From a virus (taxonomy: Duplodnaviria; Heunggongvirae; Uroviricota; Caudoviricetes), in IMG/VR virus record IMGVR_UViG_2740892232_000003: a stretch of 11,223 nt of DNA; one strand, given 5' to 3'. Each line of letters opens with the position of its first letter. Position 1 is the first letter of the stretch. A model generated the notes under the pieces. The model was not told the DNA's origin. It made no database searches and worked only from the letters and a program-made list of their open reading frames with translations. The position numbers were made by a program, and so were the translations under genes. This document shows positions 1,091 to 11,223 of this stretch, in pieces.

Positions 1091-1788
1091 TGCAGGATAT
1101 TCGCGAAGAAAGTCTAAACGAGTCGGTTAAGTCAGAGCAGTCACCGCGGGTGGTACTCTGGGAAATCGACCTGACGGTACAGGGTGGTGAGCGGTATTTT
1201 TTCTGTAATGAGCTGAATGAAAAAGGGGAGCCGGTCACCTGGCAGGGGCGTAAGTATGAGGCATACCCGATTGACGGCAGCGGCTTTGAGATGAACGGCC
1301 GGGGCAGCAGTGCCAGACCGTCGCTGACGGTGTCCAATCTGTTCGGTCTGGTCACCGGGATGGCGGAAGACCTGCAGAGTCTGGTGGGGGCCACGGTGGT
1401 CCGCCGCCGGGTGTATGCCCGTTTTCTGGATGCGGTGAATTTCGTTGCGGGCAATCCGGCGGCGGACCCGGAGCAGGAGCTGAGTGACCGCTGGGTGGTG
1501 GAGCAGATGTCGCAGCTGACAGCCATGACGGCCTCGTTTGTGCTGGCTACACCGACCGAGACGGACGGGGCGCTGTTTCCCGGTCGCATCATGCTGGCGA
1601 ACACCTGTATGTGGGATTACCGGGGAGATGAATGCGGGTATAACGGTCCTGCGGTGGCGGATGAGTTCGACAACCCCACCACGGATATCCGTAAGGACAG
1701 ATGCAGCAAGTGCATGCGCGGGTGTGAGATGCGCGGCATGGTGGCTAATTTTGGCGGTTTCCTTTCCATTAACAAACTTTCGCAGTAA
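1090..1788 (+). CDS. L: Minor tail protein L (tail tip complex)
   Basis: A 232 aa ORF, the same length as lambda gpL, in the conserved position after M. It has a cysteine-rich C-terminus (CMWDYRGDECGY...CSKCMRGCEMRG) consistent with the Fe-S-binding motif of gpL. Confidence 0.92.
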   Translation: MQDIREESLNESVKSEQSPRVVLWEIDLTVQGGERYFFCNELNEKGEPVTWQGRKYEAYPIDGSGFEMNGRGSSARPSLTVSNLFGLVTGMAEDLQSLVGATVVRRRVYARFLDAVNFVAGNPAADPEQELSDRWVVEQMSQLTAMTASFVLATPTETDGALFPGRIMLANTCMWDYRGDECGYNGPAVADEFDNPTTDIRKDRCSKCMRGCEMRGMVANFGGFLSINKLSQ

Positions 1789-1793
1789 ATCCA

Positions 1794-2537
1794 ATGACAC
1801 AGACAGAATCAGCGATTCTGGCGCATGCCCGGCGGTGTGTGCCTGCGGAGTCGTGCGGCTTAGTGGTGAGAACGCCGGAGGGGGAGCGGTATATCCCTTG
1901 TGTGAATATCTCTGCAGAGCCGGAGGCGTATTTTCGTATTGCACCGGAAGACTGGCTGCGGGCAGAGATGCAGGGGGAGATTGTGGCACTGGTCCACAGT
2001 CATCCCGGTGGGCTGCCCTGGCTGAGCGAGGCTGACCGGCGGCTGCAGATAAAAAGCGCACTGCCCTGGTGGCTGGTCTGCCGGGGTGACATTCACAAAT
2101 TCCGCTGTGTGCCACATCTGACGGGACGGCGCTTTGAGCACGGGGTGACGGACTGTTACACGCTGTTCCGGGATGCTTATCATCTGGCGGGGACTGAAAT
2201 GCCGGATTTTCATCGCGAGGATGACTGGTGGCGCAACGGCCAGAACCTGTACCTGGACAACCTGGCGGAAAACGGCTTTTGCCGGGTGTCTCCGTCCTCT
2301 GCACAGGCAGGCGATGTGCTGCTGTGCTGCTTTGGTGCTTCGGTGCCGAATCATGCCGCCGTTTACTGTGGTGACGGCGAGCTGCTGCACCATATTCCTG
2401 AACAACTGAGTAAACGGGAGAGGTATTCCGAAAAATGGCAACGACGAACGCATTCAGTCTGGCGTCACCGCCACTGGCACGCATCCGCCTTTACGGGGAT
2501 TTACAACGATTTGGCCGCCGCCTCAGCCTGTATGTGA
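1794..2537 (+). CDS. K: Tail tip assembly protein K (MPN/JAMM domain plus NlpC/P60 domain)
   Basis: A 247 aa ORF starting 5 nt after L. It has a JAMM-type metal-binding motif (HSHPGGLPWLSEAD, i.e. HxH-x7-S-x2-D) and, further on, an NlpC/P60-like Cys...His arrangement (DCYTLFRDAYH ... NHAAVYCGDGELLHHIP). Its 3' end overlaps I by about 103 nt in a different frame, as in the lambda K/I arrangement. Confidence 0.9.
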   Translation: MTQTESAILAHARRCVPAESCGLVVRTPEGERYIPCVNISAEPEAYFRIAPEDWLRAEMQGEIVALVHSHPGGLPWLSEADRRLQIKSALPWWLVCRGDIHKFRCVPHLTGRRFEHGVTDCYTLFRDAYHLAGTEMPDFHREDDWWRNGQNLYLDNLAENGFCRVSPSSAQAGDVLLCCFGASVPNHAAVYCGDGELLHHIPEQLSKRERYSEKWQRRTHSVWRHRHWHASAFTGIYNDLAAASACM

Positions 2538-3115
2538 ACACGGCAGCGGAAGCCATTCGCGCCCTGTCGATGCAGATGCCGGGCTTTCGCCGTCAGATGA
2601 ACGAAGGCTGGTACCAGATACGTATTGCCGGTGATGACACGGCACCGGAGGCGGTGTACGCCCGTCTTCACGAACAGCTGGGTGAGGGAACGGTCATCCA
2701 CATTGTGCCGCGACTGGCCGGGGCCGGAAAGGGTGGACTGCAGATTGTGCTGGGGGCGGCAGCCATCGTGGGCTCTTTCTTCACGGCCGGTGCCTCGATG
2801 GCGTTATGGGGTACAGCCCTGAGTGCCGGCGGTTTTTCTGCCACCACGATGCTGTTTTCACTGGGGGCCAGCATGATACTGGGCGGTGTGGCCCAGATGC
2901 TGGCCCCGAAGGCAAAAACACCGGATTACCGCGCAACGGATAACGGCAGACAGAACACGTACTTTTCCTCACTGGATAACATGATTGCCCAGGGGAACCC
3001 GATGCCGGTGCCTTACGGGGAAATGCTGGTTGGCTCCCGCCGTATATCCCAGGACATCAGCACCCGTGATGAAGGCGGGGGCGGAAAGGTCGTGGTTATC
3101 GGGCGGCAGGGGTAA
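2435..3115 (+). CDS. I: Tail assembly protein I
   Basis: A 226 aa ORF whose translation (MATTNAFSLASPPLARIRLYGDLQRFGRR...IHIVPR.AGA..GG.QIVLGAAAI.GSFFTAG...FSLGASM.LGGVAQMLAPKA.TP...TDNG.QNTYFSSLDNM.AQGN) matches lambda gpI from memory. The C-terminal half is Gly/Ala-rich and hydrophobic. Confidence 0.9.
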   Translation: MATTNAFSLASPPLARIRLYGDLQRFGRRLSLYVNTAAEAIRALSMQMPGFRRQMNEGWYQIRIAGDDTAPEAVYARLHEQLGEGTVIHIVPRLAGAGKGGLQIVLGAAAIVGSFFTAGASMALWGTALSAGGFSATTMLFSLGASMILGGVAQMLAPKAKTPDYRATDNGRQNTYFSSLDNMIAQGNPMPVPYGEMLVGSRRISQDISTRDEGGGGKVVVIGRQG

Positions 3116-3121
3116 AAAGAA

Positions 3122-3220
3122 TAAAAAAATCCCGCAGTGATCGCGGACAGGAACTGCGGGAGAGTTACGAAGATTAAGTGTAAGGAATTATTCTTATATC
3201 ACGACAAAAAAATTAACGCA
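3122..3220 (-). ncRNA. Candidate small non-coding RNA of about 95 nt, bounded by the promoter and terminator above (hypothetical)
   Basis: The interval between the predicted start (about 3218) and the terminator U-tract (about 3122) has no ATG-initiated ORF on the minus strand. This is an inference from promoter and terminator geometry only; there is no homology or expression evidence. Confidence 0.3.
3130..3161 (-). terminator. Intrinsic terminator hairpin oriented for the minus strand
   Basis: Arms at 3130-3138 (tcccgcagt) and 3153-3161 (aactgcggga) form a 9 bp stem around a 14 nt loop. On the + strand an A-run (aaaaaaa at 3123-3129, with more A upstream) precedes it, so the minus-strand RNA ends stem + AUUUUUUUAUUCUUUUU. 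There is no T-run after the stem on the + strand. Confidence 0.55.
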
Positions 3221-3225
3221 GAGAA

Positions 3226-3253
3226 ATTATACGCGCCACAGTCAGTTTGTGAA
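3226..3253 (-). promoter_or_regulatory. Candidate sigma70 promoter on the minus strand (-35 TTCACA, 16 bp spacer, -10 TATAAT)
   Basis: On the minus strand, TTCACA (complement of 3248-3253) is followed by a 16 nt spacer and a perfect TATAAT (complement of 3226-3231). It sits in a roughly 38% GC island between the GC-rich I and J genes. Its predicted start near 3218 points leftward toward the terminator at 3130-3161. Confidence 0.45.
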
Positions 3254-3325
3254 AATGTGAAGATATTCAGAATTTTTATGCCATTACCGGTTTTAACCAA
3301 CAGGATTATCGGTGGGCATGAAAGA

Positions 3326-3364
3326 AAACCCCGGTATCTGCTGATACCGGGGTTTCTCTTTAGC
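3326..3364. terminator. Strong GC-rich hairpin with U-rich flanks on both strands (bidirectional terminator-like)
   Basis: A perfect 13 bp stem (3326-3338 aaaccccggtatc paired with 3343-3355 gataccggggttt) encloses a 4 nt loop (tgct). The + strand continues CTCTTT and the minus strand continues UCUUUCAU. Confidence 0.6.
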
Positions 3365-3458
3365 ATGGCAGAAATGTGTTTCATGCTTTTCGGGCGAAGG
3401 ATATCCGACTTCTGTACGGAATGGCAAGTGGCGGTTAATTTATTCAGGGGAAGGCTGT

Positions 3459-6400
3459 ATGGGAAAAGGTGGCGGTAAGGCACACACGCCTCGTGAGGCG
3501 AAGGATAATCTCAAATCCACGCAGATGATGAGTGTGATTGATGCGATTGGTGAGGGACCGATAGAAGGTCCGGTGAAGGGACTGCAGAGTATTCTGGTGA
3601 ACAAAACCCCGCTGACGGACACGGACGGTAATCCCGTGATACACGGTGTGACTGCGGTCTGGCGTGCCGGGGAGCAGGAGCAGACACCACCGGAAGGCTT
3701 TGAGTCCTCCGGAGCTGAAACCGGACTGGGCGTGGAAGTGACGAAGGCAAAACCGGTGACGCGCACCATTACGTCCGCGAACATTGACCGCCTGCGGGTT
3801 ACCTTCGGGGTGCAGTCACTGGTGCAGACCACGTCAAAGGGCGACCGTAATCCTTCCTCTGTCCGGATTCTGATTCAGTTACAGCGTAATGGCCGCTGGG
3901 TGACGGAAAAGGATGTCACCATTAACGGCAAGACCACCTCGCAGTTCCTGGCCTCGGTGATTCTGGATAATCTGCCTCCCCGGCCCTTTAACATCCGGAT
4001 GGTCAGGGAGACGGCGGACAGCACCACGGACCAGCTGCAGAATAAGACGCTGTGGTCGTCATACACCGAAATCATCGATGTGAAACAGTGCTACCCGAAC
4101 ACGGCCATTGTGGGGCTGCAGGTGGATGCGGAGCAGTTCGGCGGCCAGCAGATGACGGTGAACTACCATATCCGCGGTCGCATCATCCAGGTGCCGTCAA
4201 ACTATGACCCGGAAAAACGCACGTACAGTGGTATCTGGGACGGCAGCCTGAAACCGGCATACAGCAACAACCCGGCCTGGTGTCTGTGGGACATGCTGAC
4301 TCACCCGCGCTACGGCATGGGAAAACGTCTGGGGGCGGCGGATGTGGACAAGTGGGCGCTGTATGCCATCGGGCAGTACTGCGACCAGACGGTCCCGGAT
4401 GGTTTCGGGGGGACCGAGCCGCGGATGACCTTTAATGCGTACCTGGCACAACAGCGTAAGGCGTGGGACGTTCTCAGTGATTTCTGCTCTGCGATGCGCT
4501 GTATGCCGGTATGGAACGGCCAGACGCTGACGTTCGTTCAGGACCGTCCGTCGGATGTGGTGTGGCCGTACACCAACAGCGATGTGGTGGTGGATGATAA
4601 CGGCGTGGGTTTCCGCTACAGCTTCAGTGCCCTGAAGGACCGGCACACGGCAGTGGAGGTGAATTACACCGACCCGCAGAACGGCTGGCAGACCTCCACG
4701 GAACTGGTGGAAGACCCGGAAGCCATACTGCGCTACGGACGCAACCTGCTGAAGATGGACGCGTTCGGCTGTACCAGCCGCGGTCAGGCCCACCGTGCCG
4801 GGCTGTGGGTGATAAAGACCGAACTGCTGGAAACGCAGACGGTGGATTTCACGCTCGGGTCACAGGGGCTGCGTCACACACCCGGTGACATCATTGAAAT
4901 CTGTGATAACGACTATGCCGGGACCATGACCGGCGGACGTGTCCTGTCCATCGATGCCGCCAGCCGTACCCTGACGCTGGACCGGGAGGTGACACTGCCG
5001 GAGACCGGCACGGCCACTGTTAATCTGATTAACGGCAGCGGTAAGCCGGCGAGCGTGGCCATCACCGCACACCCCGCGCCTGACCGGATACAGGTCAGCA
5101 CCCTGCCGGATGGTGTGGAGACATACGGTGTGTGGGGACTCTCCCTGCCGTCACTGCGTCGTCGCCTGTTCTGCTGTGTCTCCATCCGGGAAAACACGGA
5201 CGGCACGTTCGCCATCACGGCGGTGCAGCACGTACCGGAAAAAGAAGCCATTGTGGATAACGGGGCCAGCTTTGAGCCGCAGTCAGGCAGCCTGAACAGC
5301 GTTATCCCACCGGCAGTGCAGCACCTGACGGTGGAGGTGAGTGCAGCTGACGGTCAGTATCTGGCACAGGCGAAATGGGACACGCCGCGGGTGGTGAAGG
5401 GTGTGCGCTTCAGTCTGCGTCTGACCAGCGGAAGCGGAGAAGACAGCCGTCTGGTGAGCACCGCCATCACCGCAGACACGGAGCACCGTTTCAGCGGCCT
5501 GCCACTGGGGGAATACACCCTGACGGTCAGGGCGATTAACAGTTATGGTCAGCAGGGCGAACCGGCCACCACCACGTTCAGGATTAACGCGCCTGCAAAA
5601 CCCGCCACCATTGAGCTGACGCCGGGGTATTTTCAGATAACGGCGGTACCGGTGCTGGCGGTGTATGACCCGACGGTGCAGTTTGAGTTCTGGTTTTCGG
5701 AAAAACGCATCACGAACACGGCACAGGTGGAAAAATCTGCCCGTTATCTGGGGACCGGCAGTCAGTGGACTGTCCAGGGCGATCGGATTAAGCCGGGGAT
5801 GGATTTCTGGTTTTATGTGCGCAGTGTCAACCTGGTGGGCAAGTCTGCATTTGTGGAAGCCAGCGGGCAGGCCAGCAATGATGCAAAAGGGTATCTGGAA
5901 TTTTTCCGTGGTCTGATAGATGAGACGCTGCTGGGGCAGGCACTGAAAAAGCGCATTGATGCGTCAGCCCTGCGATCGGATGTCACTCAACTGGAAGAGA
6001 ATATCGGACAACTGGAAGAAGACATCCGTCAGCGGATGGACACGGATATTGCGGAAGTGACCCGGAAAATCGGGGAGGCGGAAAACAGCCTCACGCAGCT
6101 GGTTGCGAAAAAGAATGAGGATCAGACGCTGGCCATCGCGCAGGTGAGTCAGAAAGTGGACCGTGTCAGCAGTGAAATCTCACAGACGGTCAGTCAGAGC
6201 AGTGAGGAAAATACCCGACAGATAGCACAGGTCCGCCAGTACGTGGACAAAAAGCAAAGTGAAATCAAGCAGACAGTCAGCCAGGGCCAGTCAGAAAACG
6301 CCCGGCAGATAGCACAGGTCCGTCAGTACGTGGATGAAAAAGGGAGTGAAATTGCCTCGACCACGGATAAAAAACTGGGTGACCAGGCCGTGACCATACA

Positions 6401-7259
6401 GCAAATCCAGCGGGTTCAGTCAGACACGCGCGATAATCTGAATGCCATGTATATGCTGAAGGTGCAGAAAACGAAGAAGGGTATTCCGTATGTGGCCGGG
6501 ATTGGCGCGGGGATCGAGGATGTCGATGGTCAGACGCTGAGTAACATTCTGCTGCAGGCCGATCGCATTGCGATGATTACTCCGGAGAACGGTAACACCA
6601 CGCCGTTATTTGTGGCGCAGGGGAATCAGCTGTTCATGAACGACGTGTTCCTGAAGCGACTGTTTGCGGTGAGCATCACGTCATCCGGCAATCCTCCGAC
6701 GTTTTCCCTGACGCCGGATGGCAGGCTGACAGCCCGCAATGCGGATATCAGTGGAGCCATCACGGCGAATACCGGCACGCTCAATAATGTCACCATTAAC
6801 GAGAACTGTGTCATCAGAGGGAAACTGTCTGCAAACCAGATTGAAGGCGATCTCGTTAAAACAGTGGGTAAGGCTTTCCCCCGTGACTCCCGTGCACCGG
6901 AGCGTTGGCCATCAGGAACCATTACCGTCAGGGTTTATGACGATCAGCCGTTTAACCGGCAGATTGTTATTCCGGCGGTGGCTTTCAGCGGTGCCAGACA
7001 TGAGCGGGAGAACAGCGATACTTATTCGTCATGCCGCCTGATAGTGAAGAAAAACGGTGCTGAAATTTATAACCGTACCGCGATGGATAATACGCTGGTT
7101 TACAGTGGTGTTATTGATATGCCTGCTGGTCGCGGCCACATGACGCTGGAGTTTTCTGTATCAGCATGGTGGGTAAATGGCTGGTATCCCACAGCAAGTA
7201 TCAGCGATTTGCTGGTTGTTGTGATGAAGAAAGCCACTGCAGGCATCACGATTAGCTGA
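3459..7259 (+). CDS. J: Tail tip host-specificity protein J (central tail fibre), expanded variant of 1266 aa
   Basis: The N-terminus ([39 protein letters not shown]...) and long internal stretches ([22 protein letters not shown]; [30 protein letters not shown]; [24 protein letters not shown]; LETQTVDF; [31 protein letters not shown]; [11 protein letters not shown]...[16 protein letters not shown]; [17 protein letters not shown]) match lambda gpJ from memory. A GGGGAAGG Shine-Dalgarno sequence precedes the ATG. Confidence 0.95.
6183..6356 (+). repeat. In-frame tandem repeat inside J: two 87 bp (29 codon) units within a coiled-coil-like insertion
   Basis: Unit A (6183-6269) and unit B (6270-6356) align at about 75% identity and share the core cagatagcacaggtccg.cagtacgtgga. 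They encode [30 protein letters not shown] and [29 protein letters not shown]. Confidence 0.85.
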
Positions 7260-7277
7260 ATTTTATAACCCCAATAC

Positions 7278-7303
7278 GGGCGCCAGAAATGGCGCCTTTT
7301 TTA
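7278..7303 (+). terminator. Rho-independent terminator after J
   Basis: A 6 bp stem (gggcgcc at 7278-7284 and ggcgcc at 7291-7296, a GGCGCC palindrome) with loop agaaat is followed by TTTTTTATT. Confidence 0.7.
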
Positions 7304-7326
7304 TTGCAGAAAAGCGAGAGGTAATT

Positions 7327-7926
7327 ATGCGTAAATTATGTGCTGTTATTCTGTCCGCAGTAGTCTGGCTGGTTGCCGCTGGTACGCCAGCGAGCGCAGC
7401 AGAGCATCAGTCCACACTAAGCGCCGGGTATCTTCAGACCCACACTGATATGCCAGGAAGCGATAATCTGAACGGGATTAACGTGAAATACCGTTATGAA
7501 TTTACGGACACGCTGGGGCTGATTACGTCTTTCAGTTATGCCGACGCAGAAGATGAACAAAAAACGCATTACAGCGATACCCGCTGGCATGAAGATTCCG
7601 TGCGTAACTGCTGGTTCAGCGTAATGGCGGGGCCGTCTGTGCGCGTGAATGAATGGTTCAGCGCGTATGCGATGGCGGGTGTGGCTTACAGCCGTGTGTC
7701 GACTTTCTCCGGGGATTATCTCCGCGTAACTGACAACAAGGGGAAAACGCACGACGTGCTGACCGGAAGTGATGACGGTCGCCACAGCAATACCTCTCTG
7801 GCGTGGGGGGCTGGCGTGCAGTTTAACCCGACCGAATCCGTGACCATTGACCTTGCTTATGAAGGTTCCGGTAGTGGCGACTGGCGAACGGATGCATTTA
7901 TTGTTGGTATCGGATACCGTTTCTGA
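7327..7926 (+). CDS. lom: Lom outer-membrane protein (Ail/Lom/OmpX/PagC family beta-barrel), complete
   Basis: A 199 aa ORF with a signal peptide (MRKLCAVILSAVVWLVAAGTPASA|AE) and the family C-terminus (INVKYRYEFTD...SAYAMAGVA.SR...AWGAGVQFNP...IDLAYEGSGSGDWRTD.FIVG.GYRF), which is nearly identical to the lambda Lom C-terminus from memory. It has its own Shine-Dalgarno sequence (GAGAGG) and is flanked by terminators on both sides. Confidence 0.93.
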   Translation: MRKLCAVILSAVVWLVAAGTPASAAEHQSTLSAGYLQTHTDMPGSDNLNGINVKYRYEFTDTLGLITSFSYADAEDEQKTHYSDTRWHEDSVRNCWFSVMAGPSVRVNEWFSAYAMAGVAYSRVSTFSGDYLRVTDNKGKTHDVLTGSDDGRHSNTSLAWGAGVQFNPTESVTIDLAYEGSGSGDWRTDAFIVGIGYRF

Positions 7927-8029
7927 CAACAGACGCCGATTTATCTTCTGTAAATATTGTTATGATACGCAGGTTCATCCGCCTTATGGGGTGAACTGCG
8001 TTTGAGGAAACGTAAAGTTACACTGTCCT

Positions 8030-8064
8030 GAAGCCCGTGGCGTCACTGCTGCGGGCTTTTTTTA
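8030..8064 (+). terminator. Rho-independent terminator after lom
   Basis: A stem (agcccg at 8032-8037 paired with cgggct at 8052-8057) with a 14 nt loop is followed by a T7 run (8057-8063). Confidence 0.6.
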
Positions 8065-8077
8065 TTGGTGGAAAAGT

Positions 8078-8249
8078 ATGACAGTAAAAATTTCTGGCGT
8101 GCTTAAAGATGGCACAGGAAAACCAGTACAGAACTGCACCATTGTGCTGAAGGCCAGACGGACCAGCAGCACGGTGGTGGTGAACACGGTGGCCTCTGAA
8201 AATCCGGATGAAGCCGGGCGTTACAGCATGGATGTTGAGTATGGCCAGT
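8078..8249 (+). CDS. stf: Side tail fibre protein, N-terminal 57 codons; truncated by the N-run at 8250
   Basis: The translation (MTVKISGVLKDGTGKPVQNCTIVLKARRTSSTVVVNTVASENPDEAGRYSMDVEYGQ) matches the lambda Stf N-terminus (MAVKISGVLKDGTGKPVQNCTIQLKA...) from memory. A GGTGGA Shine-Dalgarno sequence precedes the ATG. Confidence 0.85.
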
Positions 8250-8259
8250 NNNNNNNNNN
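8250..8259. other. Run of 10 N (probable scaffold spacer, not biological sequence)
   Basis: Exactly 10 N. The flanks belong to different genes: an stf N-terminus on the left and the interior of a lom copy on the right. Confidence 0.95.
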
Positions 8260-8761
8260 CGGGTATCTTCAGACCCATACTGATATGCCAGGCAGTGATG
8301 ACCTGAAGGGCATTAACGTGAAATACCGTTATGAATTTACGGACACGCTGGGGCTGGTGACGTCATTCAGTTATGCAGGATACAAGAATCGTCAGCTGAC
8401 CCGTTACAGCGATACCCGCTGGCATAAAGATTCCGTGCGTAACCGCTGGTCCAGCGTGATGGCGGGGCCGTCTGTGCGCGTGAATGAATGGTTCAGCGCG
8501 TATGCGATGGCGGGTATGGCTTACAGCCGTGTTTCGACTTTTTCCGGGGATTACCTCCGCGTAACTGACAACAAGGGGAAAACGCACGATGTGCTGACCG
8601 GAAGTGATGACGGTCGCCACAGCAACACGTCTCTGGCGTGGGGGGCTGGCGTGCAGTTTAACCCGACCGAATCCGTGGCCATTGATATTGCTTATGAAGG
8701 TTCTGGCAGTGGTGACTGGCGCACTGACGGTTTCATCGTGGGTGTCGGTTATAAGTTCTGA
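8260..8761 (+). CDS. lom: Second lom copy (Ail/Lom family), 5'-truncated by the gap
   Basis: The translation (GYLQTHTDMPGSDDLKGINVKYRYEFTDTLGLVTSF...AYEGSGSGDWRTDGFIVGVGYKF, stop at 8759-8761) is about 90% identical to the lom at 7327-7926. It is a distinct allele (for example YAGYKNRQLTRYSD versus YADAEDEQKTHYSD). Confidence 0.88.
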
Positions 8762-8785
8762 TTAGCCAGGTAACACAGTGTTATG

Positions 8786-8795
8786 NNNNNNNNNN
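8786..8795. other. Run of 10 N (probable scaffold spacer)
   Basis: Exactly 10 N, with unrelated sequence on either side. Confidence 0.95.
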
Positions 8796-9095
8796 TTGGT
8801 TTTAGTTTCGCTGCTTAACTTACCGTTACTGACTACACATGTGGACCGTTCGGACTTTACCCGCATACCAATAAGCATTTTTTCCAGCCCGGCATTTTCA
8901 TTTATTCGTCGGTTTGAACCACCTATATCACAATACGGAAAACCGTCGTACCCACCTGATGAACCAAACCCCATTACGATCCCCGCATCTGCCTGATGCC
9001 GGTATGTGTCAAAAACACGCGGTGCTGCATTTGGCGTTTTATACCAGTTCTTATGTACCTCACAAAGAACCGTAAAAGGAAGATTATAAAGATTA

Positions 9096-9105
9096 NNNNN
9101 NNNNN
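9096..9105. other. Run of 10 N (probable scaffold spacer)
   Basis: Exactly 10 N. Confidence 0.95.
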
Positions 9106-9112
9106 AGTGGAT

Positions 9113-9399
9113 ATGGCAGCAGTAAAAATCTCAGGTGTGCTGAAAGATGGTGCGGGAAAACCAATACAGAACTGCACTATTCAACTGAAGGCAAAGCGTA
9201 ACAGCACCACGGTACTGGTGAACACGGTGGCCTCTGAAAATCCGGATGAAGCCGGGCGTTACAGCATGGATGTTGAGTATGGCCAGTACAGCGTCACCCT
9301 GCTGGTTGAAGGTTTTCCGCCTTCACATGCCGGGACCATTACCGTCTATGAAGGTTCCAGACCAGGTACGCTGAATGATTTTCTCGGTGCCATGACGGA
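9113..9399 (+). CDS. stf: Side tail fibre protein, N-terminal 95 codons; a third allele, truncated by gaps on both sides
   Basis: The translation (MAAVKISGVLKDGAGKPIQNCTIQLKAKRNSTTVLVNTVASENPDEAGRYSMDVEYGQYSVTLLVEGFPPSHAGTITVYEGSRPGTLNDFLGAMT) is the Stf N-terminus again, distinct from the copies at 8078 (+) and 11144 (-). Confidence 0.85.
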
Positions 9400-9409
9400 N
9401 NNNNNNNNN
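9400..9409. other. Run of 10 N (probable scaffold spacer)
   Basis: Exactly 10 N. Confidence 0.95.
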
Positions 9410-10610
9410 CCGCGTTACCGGTGCCGTCCCCGTAACAATAAAAGATGATGCGCCTGTACCAGCCTCAATCTGTGGAGTGGTTACATCGAGATAATCCCCT
9501 GATGCAACCATCTGCCCTGTATCCGGAGAATACTGGACAAAACCACCAACCGTATTTTCTGTTGTATCTGCTTTTAATGTAGCCTCAAAAAATATCCAGC
9601 CAGTTGCATCATCCTTAACAGACCTTGCTGTAACACGGCTTGTCTGACCTGTCTTGCTAATTATGCGGGTGGTAAGGTTCAGGTTTGCTGCTCCTATTGA
9701 TGTCCTTACCTCCCCATCATAATGTTCAAATAAAATACGAACGGCGATATTATCAACTTCACTTTTTACCCGACAGGATATAGTTACATGCTTTTCGTCC
9801 CCTGAAGTATCAACCCCTCCGGTACTCGAATACAGTCCGATAATGGTATGCGCTTTACTTGTACCAACAATCGAATCCTGTACGACAAACCGGCCATAAT
9901 TAAACCCGAAACTATCTGTGCCTGTTTCTGTAACGTCCAGTGAAGTTGACTTATTCCACTTCGAAGGGTCTGTACTGTTCGGGAAGAAGTTCGTTCTTTG
10001 CCCCTCAATAAGCAGGCCATCACACTCAAATCGTGGCTCATTAATTTCCGCCGTTTTCAGTTCGCCAGATTTGTTGATATATGTTGCCGTTGATGCGCGA
10101 CTGAAATTAACCTGTTTATCACTGGCAACCTGAACCACATTATCACCAATCTTCACTTTTTTATAACCCGGAGAATAGCCCGTAATCATATCCAGCGAAT
10201 CATTAAAGGGTATCCACACATCCGGCAGCGGCTGTAAAACATATCTGTACGGCTCTGCTGTCTGGTTTGCGTATTCTCTGGCAGCATCTTCACTTGCTTT
10301 TGCTGCCGTCTGGCTTGCTGCCGATGCTTTCGCCGAGTTCGCCGCCGCTGTTTCGCTCACCTTTGCGTTGGCTTCACTGTCTTTGGCATTCGTCTCACTG
10401 GTTTTCGCTGCCGTCTGGCTGGATTTTGCGTTTTTTTCGCTGGCCTTTGTGGCTGTCTCGCTATTTTTCGCGCTGGTTTCTGATTTTTTGGCTGCTGTCG
10501 CGGAGTTTGCCGATGCAGTCTGCGAGGCCGCTGCCGCCTGTGCGCTGTTAGCTGCATTCGTTTCTGAGGTTTTCGCTGCATTCTTCGATGAGGCTGCTGC
10601 CGTTTCGGAT
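9410..10610 (-). CDS. stf: Side tail fibre protein, internal segment (Ala/Ser/Thr-rich repeat region plus a central domain); both ends run into gaps
   Basis: An open minus-strand frame spans the whole segment. It reads SETAAASSKNAAKTSETNAANSAQ...AKASEDAAREYANQTAEPYRYVLQPLPDVWIPFNDS...TGTAPVTR. The low-complexity Ala-rich repeats are typical of Stf-type fibre shafts, and the first 137 nt overlap the segment that carries the stf start (see repeat 10474-10758). Confidence 0.8.
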
Positions 10611-10758
10611 NNNNNNNNNNTTGGTTTCTGATTTTTTGGCTGCTGTCGCGGAGTTTGCCGATGCAGTCTGCGAGGCCGCTGCCGCTTGTGCGCTGTTAGC
10701 TGCATTCGTTTCTGAGGTTTTCGCTGCATTCTTCGATGAGGCTGCTGCCGTTTCGGAT
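10474..10758. repeat. 137 bp direct repeat flanking the N-run at 10611-10620 (10474-10610 versus 10622-10758, one mismatch)
   Basis: The two copies are identical except for gccgcctgtgcg versus gccgcttgtgcg. The offset of 148 nt preserves the stf reading frame (148 mod 3 = 1, matching the frame classes on the two sides). Confidence 0.85.
10611..10620. other. Run of 10 N (probable scaffold spacer between overlapping contig ends)
   Basis: Exactly 10 N, flanked by the 137 bp near-identical direct repeat. Confidence 0.95.
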
Positions 10759-11144
10759 TTCTTTGCCGCCGCTGCACTCTGTGATGACGCTCCGGCATGA
10801 CGTGCCACTTCATTCACCATCAGCTCAAAACGGCGCAGTGCCTCCGGACGGGCATCATCCTCCGTCATGGCACCGAGAAAATCATTCAGCGTACCGGGTT
10901 GAGAATCTTCATACACGGTGATGGTCCCGGCATGTGACGGCGGGAATCCTTCCACCAACAGAATAACGCTGTACTGACCGTACTCAACGTCCATGCTGTA
11001 ACGCCCGGCTTCATCCGGATTTTCTGAGGCCAGCGTGTTCACCACCACCGTGGTGCTGTTACGTTTTGCTTTCAGCTGGATTGTGCAGTTCTGTACCGGT
11101 TTTCCTGTGCCGTCTTTCAGTACACCTGAAATCTTTACTGCCAT
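10621..11144 (-). CDS. stf: Side tail fibre protein, N-terminal part (ATG at complement of 11142-11144); 3' end runs into the gap
   Basis: The translation is MAVKISGVLKDGTGKPVQNCTIQLKAKRNSTTVVVNTLASENPDEAGRYSMDVEYGQYSVILLVEGFPPSHAGTITVYEDSQPGTLNDFLGAMTEDDARPEALRRFELMVNEVARHAGA... This is the closest of the three copies to the lambda Stf N-terminus as I recall it. The ORF track lists an alternative start two codons upstream (MNM...). Confidence 0.88.
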
Positions 11145-11154
11145 ATTCACCCCA

Positions 11155-11182
11155 CAAAAAAGCCCGCCTGAACCGGCGGGCT
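11155..11182 (-). terminator. Rho-independent terminator between lom and stf (minus strand)
   Basis: The minus-strand sequence is agcccgcc-ggttca-ggcgggct followed by TTTTTTG: an 8 bp GC-rich stem (11161-11168 with 11175-11182), a 6 nt loop and a T-run. Confidence 0.7.
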
Positions 11183-11208
11183 GTCATAACACTGTGTTAC
11201 CTGGCTAA

Positions 11209-11223
11209 TCAGAACTTATAACC
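11209..11223 (-). CDS. lom: Last four codons and stop of a lom copy on the minus strand (runs off the window edge)
   Basis: The reverse complement of 11209-11223 is ggttataagttctga, encoding G-Y-K-F-stop. This is identical to the 3' end of the lom copy at 8749-8761. Confidence 0.5.
   Translation of the reverse strand, partial: GYKF

Follow-up and report, generated by a model that had tools for sequence, protein, structure and literature searches.

A repeat-built, putatively alpha-helical shaft lengthens the central tail fibre protein J of a lambda relative from Escherichia coli

Introduction

What has been added to a central tail fibre protein that is longer than that of phage lambda, and is the addition a plain spacer or part of a domain with a role of its own? 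The question is raised by gene J of the virus record IMGVR_UViG_2740892232_000003, a stretch of 11,223 nucleotides that we call the window. Its product, the central tail fibre or tip attachment protein, has 1266 aa, 134 more than J of lambda with its 1132 aa. An original prediction, made from the letters of the DNA, had placed the excess in one block between the motifs GYLEFF and YVAGIG (positions 5900-6480), and had described that block as a helical spacer with heptad-like spacing and two tandem 29-codon units (6183-6356), and as a plausible site of length variation. As set out below, the addition is predicted to enlarge the alpha-helical shaft (AHS) of the fibre, and we consider it reasonably probable that the inserted block is a quantised, register-preserving extension of this known trigger domain, the conserved ends of which would keep the functions that they have in lambda.

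In lambda gpJ the AHS is a parallel three-helix bundle of residues ~809-861, located below the FNIII-2 gate and atop the beta-prism fibre, and structures are available for the closed (PDB 8XCK) and the open (8XCI) state (Ge & Wang 2024, PMC11101478). The bundle clamps the three FNIII-2 domains from beneath and so keeps the FNIII gate shut; upon binding to LamB it flips by ~180 degrees, its lower part (841-861) turns into beta-strands atop the prism, the strings of FNIII domains come apart, and the tube is then open (PMC11101478).

The excess length of J falls within the predicted shaft

Gene J of the window belongs to a tail gene set of the lambda type. The annotation of E. coli CE10, which has the identical J locus, gives the order tape measure, M, L, K, I, J, lom, stf, and the open reading frames (ORFs) of the window, together with their Pfam matches to lom and to stf N-termini, agree with this set. 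Within J, the Pfam domains FNIII-A_GpJ, Phage-tail_3, Ig_J, Ig_J_second, Phage_Tail_Tip and Ig_GpJ_C were all found above their gathering scores and in the order expected for a lambda-type J, i.e. hub domains, two Ig/FNIII domains, shaft, the Phage_Tail_Tip beta-prism and the Ig_GpJ_C receptor-binding domain (Table 1). The start of the beta-prism fibre matched the PDB chains 8xck/8xcj/8iyk of lambda J (HMMER), and the receptor-binding domain was modelled by AlphaFold2 (AF2) as a beta-sandwich with a predicted local distance difference test score (pLDDT) of about 75-90. No Pfam match was obtained for aa 817-979, between the end of Ig_J_second (816) and the start of Phage_Tail_Tip (980), and strong coverage by PHROGs was limited to the last ~65 residues of the shaft segment. 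There was no further ORF of at least 80 aa inside 5970-6380 on either strand, and an 83-aa plus-strand ORF in another frame (5665-5916) overlaps just the first 17 bases of the flagged region 5900-6480.

A way to locate the extra residues is to follow the alignment with lambda J along the protein. The two sequences are collinear, with 71% identity, up to aa ~836 of the window J, and the alignment restarts at aa 975, equivalent to lambda 840, with 51% identity (BLASTP); HMMER against the PDB chains of lambda J returned the same two pieces. Since the alignment breaks once and then resumes, the excess amounts to a single block, aa ~838-974 (nt 5970-6380), as had been proposed, and lambda J has no segment of equivalent length at this place, the distance from GYLEFF to YVAGIG being 194 aa in the window J and 57 aa in lambda. 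The block is inserted at lambda position ~838, between the equivalents of the upper (809-840) and lower (841-861) shaft helices, and would therefore be an expansion of the AHS. From these alignments and from the structure models, the flagged segment is predicted to be the AHS of the central tail fibre; both of its ends have homology to lambda 809-861, and FNIII-2 (aa 714-816) is its putative N-terminal anchor.

The likeness to the lambda AHS is thus one of family and of place, between FNIII-2 and the beta-prism fibre with homologous flanks, and it extends to the last ~22 residues, which are homologous to the part that refolds in lambda. The differences lie in between. The shaft has ~53 residues in lambda and ~180 in the window J, and the 137 extra residues are Q-rich and arranged in 29-residue units, whereas neither periodicity nor internal repeat was detectable in the lambda shaft segment. 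A search of the PDB with the shaft alone retrieved just lambda J, over the last 47 residues, and matches at chance level (the short tail fibre 9cuy and apolipoprotein A-IV), so that the repeat block is without a solved homologue by sequence. J-like proteins with long shafts (9l9p, 23gd, 25vf) were matched by a larger query only via its beta-prism part.

Two AF2 monomer models describe this segment as an extended helix and not as a globular fold, which was what the original prediction had anticipated. In the construct of aa 780-1060 a single helix covers aa 824-997, with pLDDT 89-94 over aa ~840-969; in that of aa 715-1266 helices at aa 809-821, 824-835 and 838-993 are followed by beta structure and the C-terminal beta-sandwich. 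The predicted shaft helix is therefore uninterrupted over 156-174 residues, with a core pLDDT of about 85-94.

Repeat architecture of the shaft

Over aa 817-1000 the strongest hydrophobic period is 3.625 residues, i.e. 29/8, with a power of 3.4 (maximum of 500 shuffles 2.56). The canonical heptad value of 3.5 was found neither in the allele of the window nor in any allele of at least 158 aa, and the heptad-like spacing proposed earlier has to be replaced by an 11+11+7 pattern. The BLOSUM autocorrelation of the shaft has peaks at lags of 29, 58 and 87, and the peak at lag 29 survives the deletion of the second copy of the 87-bp repeat (0.68, whereas none of 300 shuffles exceeded 0.44). When the whole shaft is written in rows of 29 from aa 818 it resolves into six units, of which the 87-bp duplication represents units 4 and 5; the repeat pair first noticed is real, then, but it is not an isolated feature. 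Each unit has eight core positions, hydrophobic at 3, 6/7, 10/11, 18, 21 and 25 and polar at 14 and 28; one half of the unit (xIAQVxQxV) is strongly hydrophobic and the other (SQSSEEN) polar.

Non-heptad coiled coils, such as those containing hendecads, have 11/3 = 3.67 or 18/5 = 3.6 residues per turn, and a value of 3.625 corresponds to a nearly straight, weakly supercoiled bundle, as opposed to the left-handed supercoil of the 3.5 repeat. The shaft resembles hendecad-containing trimeric coiled coils in its 29/8 = 11+11+7 arrangement and in the polar N, S and Q at some core positions. Its hydrophobic stripe is compatible with a parallel three-helix bundle, although it is not proof of one. In the literature searched, with its partial coverage, we found neither a 29-residue supra-repeat described for the central fibre of a phage nor an earlier account of a length polymorphism of J.

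Tandem Repeats Finder (TRF) reported a period of 87 with 2.0 copies at 6171-6342 (82% matches, score 237). In the 6171/6258 register the copies share 65/87 nt (75%) and differ at 22, whereas the best adjacent 87-mer in 300 codon shuffles of J reached 44/87; 15 of the 29 codon pairs are identical, seven differ synonymously and seven non-synonymously. The two units at 6183-6356 of the original prediction are this repeat read in a rotated register, in which the copies agree at 64/87 nt and 22/29 aa. Given the margin over the shuffled sequences and the accumulated synonymous and non-synonymous differences, the duplication is real but not recent. With 75% identity between the copies, and the allele fixed and identical in 10 genomes, it does not behave as a variable number tandem repeat (VNTR) arising by recent slippage. 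Compared with the single-copy unit of the 158-aa alleles described below, copy 2 is identical at 79/87 nt and copy 1 at just 70/87 (80%), from which the duplication appears to be old or else to have come through recombination with an allele not seen here. An origin by unequal crossing-over between two known single-copy alleles (QSTEENA and QGQSENA types) was considered; copy 2 would fit it, but copy 1 matches neither. Upstream of the 87-bp copies there is also a tandem duplication of a single heptad (21 bp), overlooked in the original prediction, one copy of which is absent in all 158-aa alleles.

Length alleles of the shaft

The shaft had been proposed as a site of length variation, and the alleles found in E. 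coli bear this out. The segment from GYLEFF to YVAGIG measures 57 (lambda), 85, 88, 158, 194 (window), 227, 256 or 296 aa. The 85-aa allele is that of O157/Stx phages, with one 88-aa variant; the 256-aa segment comes from one protein among representatives chosen at 50% identity, and the 296-aa segment from an intact 1239-aa J in the complete genome NZ_CP033635. The alleles of 57 to 227 aa were taken from protein fragments and IMG/VR loci; the listing of protein homologues was made of fragments of up to 415 aa, which served to define alleles and not for full-length statistics.

In the multiple alignment the alleles differ by discrete steps. From 158 to 194 aa the additions are +7 and +29, from 158 to 227 aa they are +11 and +58, the latter being two diverged 29-mers, and from 227 to 256 aa there is a further +29, duplicated in a different register. 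This last case is an independent duplication in the same shaft type, found in a representative protein of 538 aa (P0122), where the unit AEVTKKITASENSITELVAKKSGEQSLAI occurs twice. The 296-aa allele contains three copies of a 58-aa unit and three 11-aa copies similar to LENAINREMTQ; the three 58-aa copies include a pair with the same protein sequence, and so do the 11-aa repeats, and these copies do look recent. A first instance of the three-copy 58-aa allele (P0011) was discarded as a frameshift-ridden assembly, and the allele was confirmed in NZ_CP033635 instead. All alleles of at least 158 aa have a single coherent peak at 3.625, with a power that grows with length from 2.6 to 5.7, which indicates that the insertions and deletions keep the hydrophobic stripe in phase.

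Among 79 close IMG/VR relatives, 75 have the 158-aa allele with one copy of the 29-codon unit, three have the 194-aa allele with two copies and one has the 85-aa allele. Ten complete E. coli genomes, CE10 and IAI39 among them, have exactly the 581-bp segment of the window, and in two more it is 99.8% identical; hence the two-copy allele is not an artefact of assembly; the collapse or expansion of repeats, against which a check had been advised, is excluded. Strains that carried the 158-aa and 194-aa alleles included extraintestinal and K1 strains, e.g. CFT073, CE10 and IAI39. Only two of 50,697 deposited phage genomes have this type of shaft, PhiR40_1 and PhiR49_2 (host listed as E. coli ECOR13), both in the 158-aa form, which shows that it occurs in isolated phages as well. 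Across the wider J family, sampled as representatives at 50% identity, the spacing from FNIII to prism ranges from 57 to more than 600 aa.

In the J of strain ECCNB12-2 (L084, NZ_CP033635.1, positions 1210-4926) the 296-aa shaft is joined to a short distal end of the HK639 type, there is no lambda-type receptor-binding domain, and two small ORFs follow. The combination of a Q-rich shaft with an HK639-type end indicates that shaft cassettes and distal ends are shuffled independently. J of the window is itself a mosaic when compared with the common 158-aa allele (window 4989-8300 against L013/L004). Its FNIII domains and shaft are 88-95% identical, and the stretch from ~6640 to ~7390, which includes the receptor-binding domain, is mostly 100% identical, with one bin of 94% at 6789-6938.

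Most of the J-derived public proteins (P0001-P0120) are "partial" products on contigs of ~1 kb, and some look chimeric, such as P0023, in which a 54-aa stretch is repeated across YVAGIG. J regularly breaks or confuses short-read assemblies.

Proposed role and competing explanations

If the shaft is an extension of the lambda trigger domain, as we favour, its conserved ends would clamp the FNIII-2 gate and its last ~22 residues would refold on receptor binding, both by homology with lambda. The inserted 29-residue units would act as a rigid extension on which the reach of the fibre depends, e.g. where it has to cross O-antigen or a capsule; as the tip opens, this inserted middle would be displaced. 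At 1.48 Å per residue a fully helical 194-aa segment would be ~29 nm long, against ~8 nm in lambda, and the distance from tail tip to receptor-binding domain would grow by ~20 nm, with 4.3 nm for each 29-residue unit and 1 nm for a heptad. Alleles differ by in-frame duplication or deletion of 7, 11, 29 or 58 residues with the stripe kept in phase. Both lambda and Ur-lambda fail to plate through O16 O-antigen (PMC11990801), and reach through such surface layers may, we infer, be the reason why shaft length matters. The helical spacer of the original prediction is retained in this account as an extended helix but not as a plain spacer, the domain being by homology the AHS, which in lambda holds the gate and refolds (PMC11101478).

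Several observations weigh against the proposal of a rigid extension. The 85-aa alleles have no significant periodicity. The AF2 models are of the monomer and so bear on helicity and not on the trimeric state or straightness of the shaft, their predicted TM-scores (pTM) are low (0.30-0.31), and each run of five gave three poor models. Finally, the shafts of the closest solved relatives with long shafts, the F-type pyocins, are not passive, as they switch fold and carry side fibres (PMC12874032, PMC13455828).

This last point leads to the alternative that we take most seriously while holding it unlikely, namely that the shaft is a metastable spring of the F7-pyocin type. The whole coiled coil of ~160-180 residues would then convert into a triangular beta-prism on receptor binding, the energy released would serve to open the tip and to drive out the tape-measure protein, and copy number would tune that energy or the height of the prism and not the reach. 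The central fibre proteins (CFPs) of F-type pyocins have trimeric shafts of 160-180 residues with side fibres at a kink (PMC13455828; bioRxiv 10.64898/2026.02.24.707460). The shaft of the F7 CFP (residues 921-1083, 163 aa) undergoes a wholesale switch to beta-prism that is required for killing (He et al. 2026, PMC12874032), and a fold switch has been predicted for 21/24 phage CFPs, including those of the coliphages HK639 and mEp390 (PMC12874032). The shaft of the window, like these, is a long helical segment of a J-like protein placed directly before the beta-prism. It occupies the same position as the F7 switch, after FNIII-2 and before the beta-prism seed, and has a similar length; its modelled helix ends at aa ~997 and is followed by Phage_Tail_Tip, which is the F7-type placement of a coiled coil directly N-terminal of three non-switching prism strands. 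Shaft length is hypervariable across the family in both cases. The Q-rich 29-mer shaft of ECCNB12-2, fused to an HK639-type end, suggests that the shaft types are interchangeable in position, and the polar half of each unit could leave the bundle marginally stable.

What speaks against a spring is the defining sequence signature of the F7 switch, an alternation, over the future strands, of SxSxxMxxLxS with the reversed pattern in which small residues, mostly Ala, occupy the S positions (PMC12874032). In the J of HK639, taken as positive control, the shaft gave eight matches, where shuffles gave 3.45 on average (p=0.03); they lie between aa 831 and 1003, and their order (rev, rev, fwd, rev, fwd, rev, fwd, fwd) alternates for the most part. 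The shaft of the window gave two, with 1.7-1.8 expected by shuffling, and is therefore not enriched. There is none in the inserted block, aa 838-974, which thus fails this sequence criterion of the F7 class. The two matches (aa 978, reverse, and aa 986, forward) are within the stretch homologous to lambda 841-861, and this pair of strand motifs in the last 22 residues of the shaft could be taken in favour of the spring. Composition and periodicity differ too, with 14% Ala and a peak at 3.525 in the HK639 shaft against 7% Ala, 13% Gln and 3.625 in that of the window. The pyocin shafts have no significant sequence similarity to the shaft of the window, which is built of tandem 29/58-residue repeats, has no predicted kink or side-fibre site and differs in periodicity from the pyocin value of ~3.5; in the F2 pyocin (PyoF10/PA0641) the heptad register is continuous with one stutter (PMC13455828; bioRxiv 10.64898/2026.02.24.707460). 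AF2 run on the monomer with a multiple sequence alignment produced helix only, and lambda itself has no extensive fold switch according to He et al. (PMC12874032).

Rather unlikely as well, in our estimation, is that the Q-rich 29-unit shaft is a distinct, undescribed class of central-fibre shaft, a nearly straight three-helix rod that changes length only in phase-preserving quanta of 7, 11, 29 or 58 residues. In that case E. coli prophages may adjust fibre reach through copy number to how thick the O-antigen or capsule of the host is, or the half-polar units may constitute a second type of metastable spring, one that lacks the Ala-rich F7 motif and yet drives the opening of the tip.

Side fibres or accessory receptor-binding proteins could also dock on the shaft, by analogy with the F2 and F7 pyocins, in which three side-fibre trimers bind the kink of the shaft in an attachment that has been solved (PMC13455828; bioRxiv 10.64898/2026.02.24.707460). 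We find this quite improbable. The side-fibre genes beside J in the window carry a lambda-type N-terminal domain (Pfam phage_tail_N), and in Ur-lambda this domain forms a collar on gpV/gpM and not on the shaft (PMC12617516), a structure on which we rejected docking as the main explanation. Moreover, the AF2 models have neither a kink nor a non-helical insert in aa 838-993, and no pyocin-type OB side-fibre gene was seen within the window.

That the repeat stems from faulty assembly, or is a neutral lesion without functional meaning in a prophage that is decaying, could be argued from the rearranged region downstream of J and from the frequent breakage of J genes in short-read assemblies, but it is very improbable and already largely refuted by the presence of the segment in 10 independent complete genomes, in two more at 99.8% and, as the two-copy form, in three IMG/VR contigs, by the 22 differences between the copies, seven codons differing only synonymously, which a collapse or expansion would not be expected to produce, and by an ORF that is intact over 1266 codons in a family where all indels between alleles are in frame and preserve the phase.

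Other features of the window

The region downstream of J (7260-11223) is rearranged, being collinear with none of 5426 complete E. coli genomes; the best place covers 53%. Segments of lom and of the stf N-terminus are duplicated and there are inverted arms of 281 nt (9119-9399 and 10861-11141), which together suggest a junction of recombination or inversion between prophages or else a chimeric assembly. CE10, with the identical J segment, has an intact stf of 687 aa at the corresponding place. The minus-strand fibre ORF contains a direct repeat of 137 nt in two copies, 99% identical and 148 nt apart from start to start (10474-10758), as well as weaker repeats of 41 nt (10275-10462), and, on sequence, may be another repeat-bearing fibre shaft.

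Upstream, genes I and J are separated by 343 bp (3116-3458), against 60 bp in lambda. This gap includes most of a 113-aa ORF with a GTG start (3137-3478) for which neither Pfam nor PHROG gave a match and CE10 has no annotation. A short tandem repeat of 8 bp, TGTGCTGC, occurs in about three copies within the K gene (C40 peptidase) at 2315-2346.

Table 1. Features of gene J and of the downstream region, in window coordinates
Feature	Position	Strand	Basis or remark
Gene J, central tail fibre / tip attachment protein	3459..7259	+	ORF, 1266 aa; annotated gpJ in CE10
Second Ig/FNIII domain (FNIII-2), aa 714-816, ends in GYLEFF	5598..5906	+	Pfam Ig_J_second, E=3.5e-40; aligns to lambda FNIII-2
Predicted alpha-helical shaft (AHS), aa 817-997	5907..6449	+	AF2 helix; flanks homologous to lambda AHS; periodicity 3.625
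Block (137 aa, aa 838-974) that lambda J lacks	5970..6380	+	BLASTP and HMMER alignments
Array of six 29-residue units, starts at aa 818, 847, 876, 905, 934, 963	5910..6431	+	BLOSUM autocorrelation; stacked view
87-bp repeat, copy 1, aa 905-933	6171..6257	+	TRF
87-bp repeat, copy 2, aa 934-962	6258..6344	+	TRF
21-bp in-frame tandem duplication, one heptad, QLEENIG / QLEEDIR	5988..6029	+	16/21 nt identical
C-terminal shaft end, aa 975-997, homologous to lambda 840-861	6381..6449	+	Alignment from lambda 840 onward
Start of beta-prism central straight fibre, Phage_Tail_Tip, aa 980-1107, contains YVAGIG	6396..6779	+	Pfam PF09327, E=1.1e-23
Receptor-binding domain, Ig_GpJ_C, aa 1136-1266	6864..7256	+	Pfam PF12421, E=1.4e-37
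lom	7327-7926		
Hybrid ORF, side-fibre N-terminus fused to lom	8078-8761		
Second stf N-terminus	8996-9448	+	
Third stf N-terminus	11150-10551	minus	
496-aa fibre-shaft ORF	10813-9323	minus	Out of frame after third stf N-terminus

Conclusions

The AHS domain is already known, as is its variability in length among J-like proteins; the architecture in quanta of 29 residues and the allelic series in E. coli appear to be undescribed in the literature searched, the coverage of which was partial. Recent work has identified the shaft in J-like proteins as the link from receptor binding to tail-tip opening in non-contractile tails, in lambda (2024) and in the F-type pyocins (2026), and a close relative of lambda turns out to have a shaft of pyocin length but of a different sequence class. 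In practical terms, the repeats in J cause breaks in assemblies and mis-sized J annotations. For the biology of these phages, the natural series of alleles from 57 to 296 residues, with steps of 7, 11, 29 and 58, provides ready-made length variants of a genetically tractable, otherwise lambda-like protein, which could be used to test whether the length of the shaft sets the reach through O-antigen or capsule, stores energy, or both.

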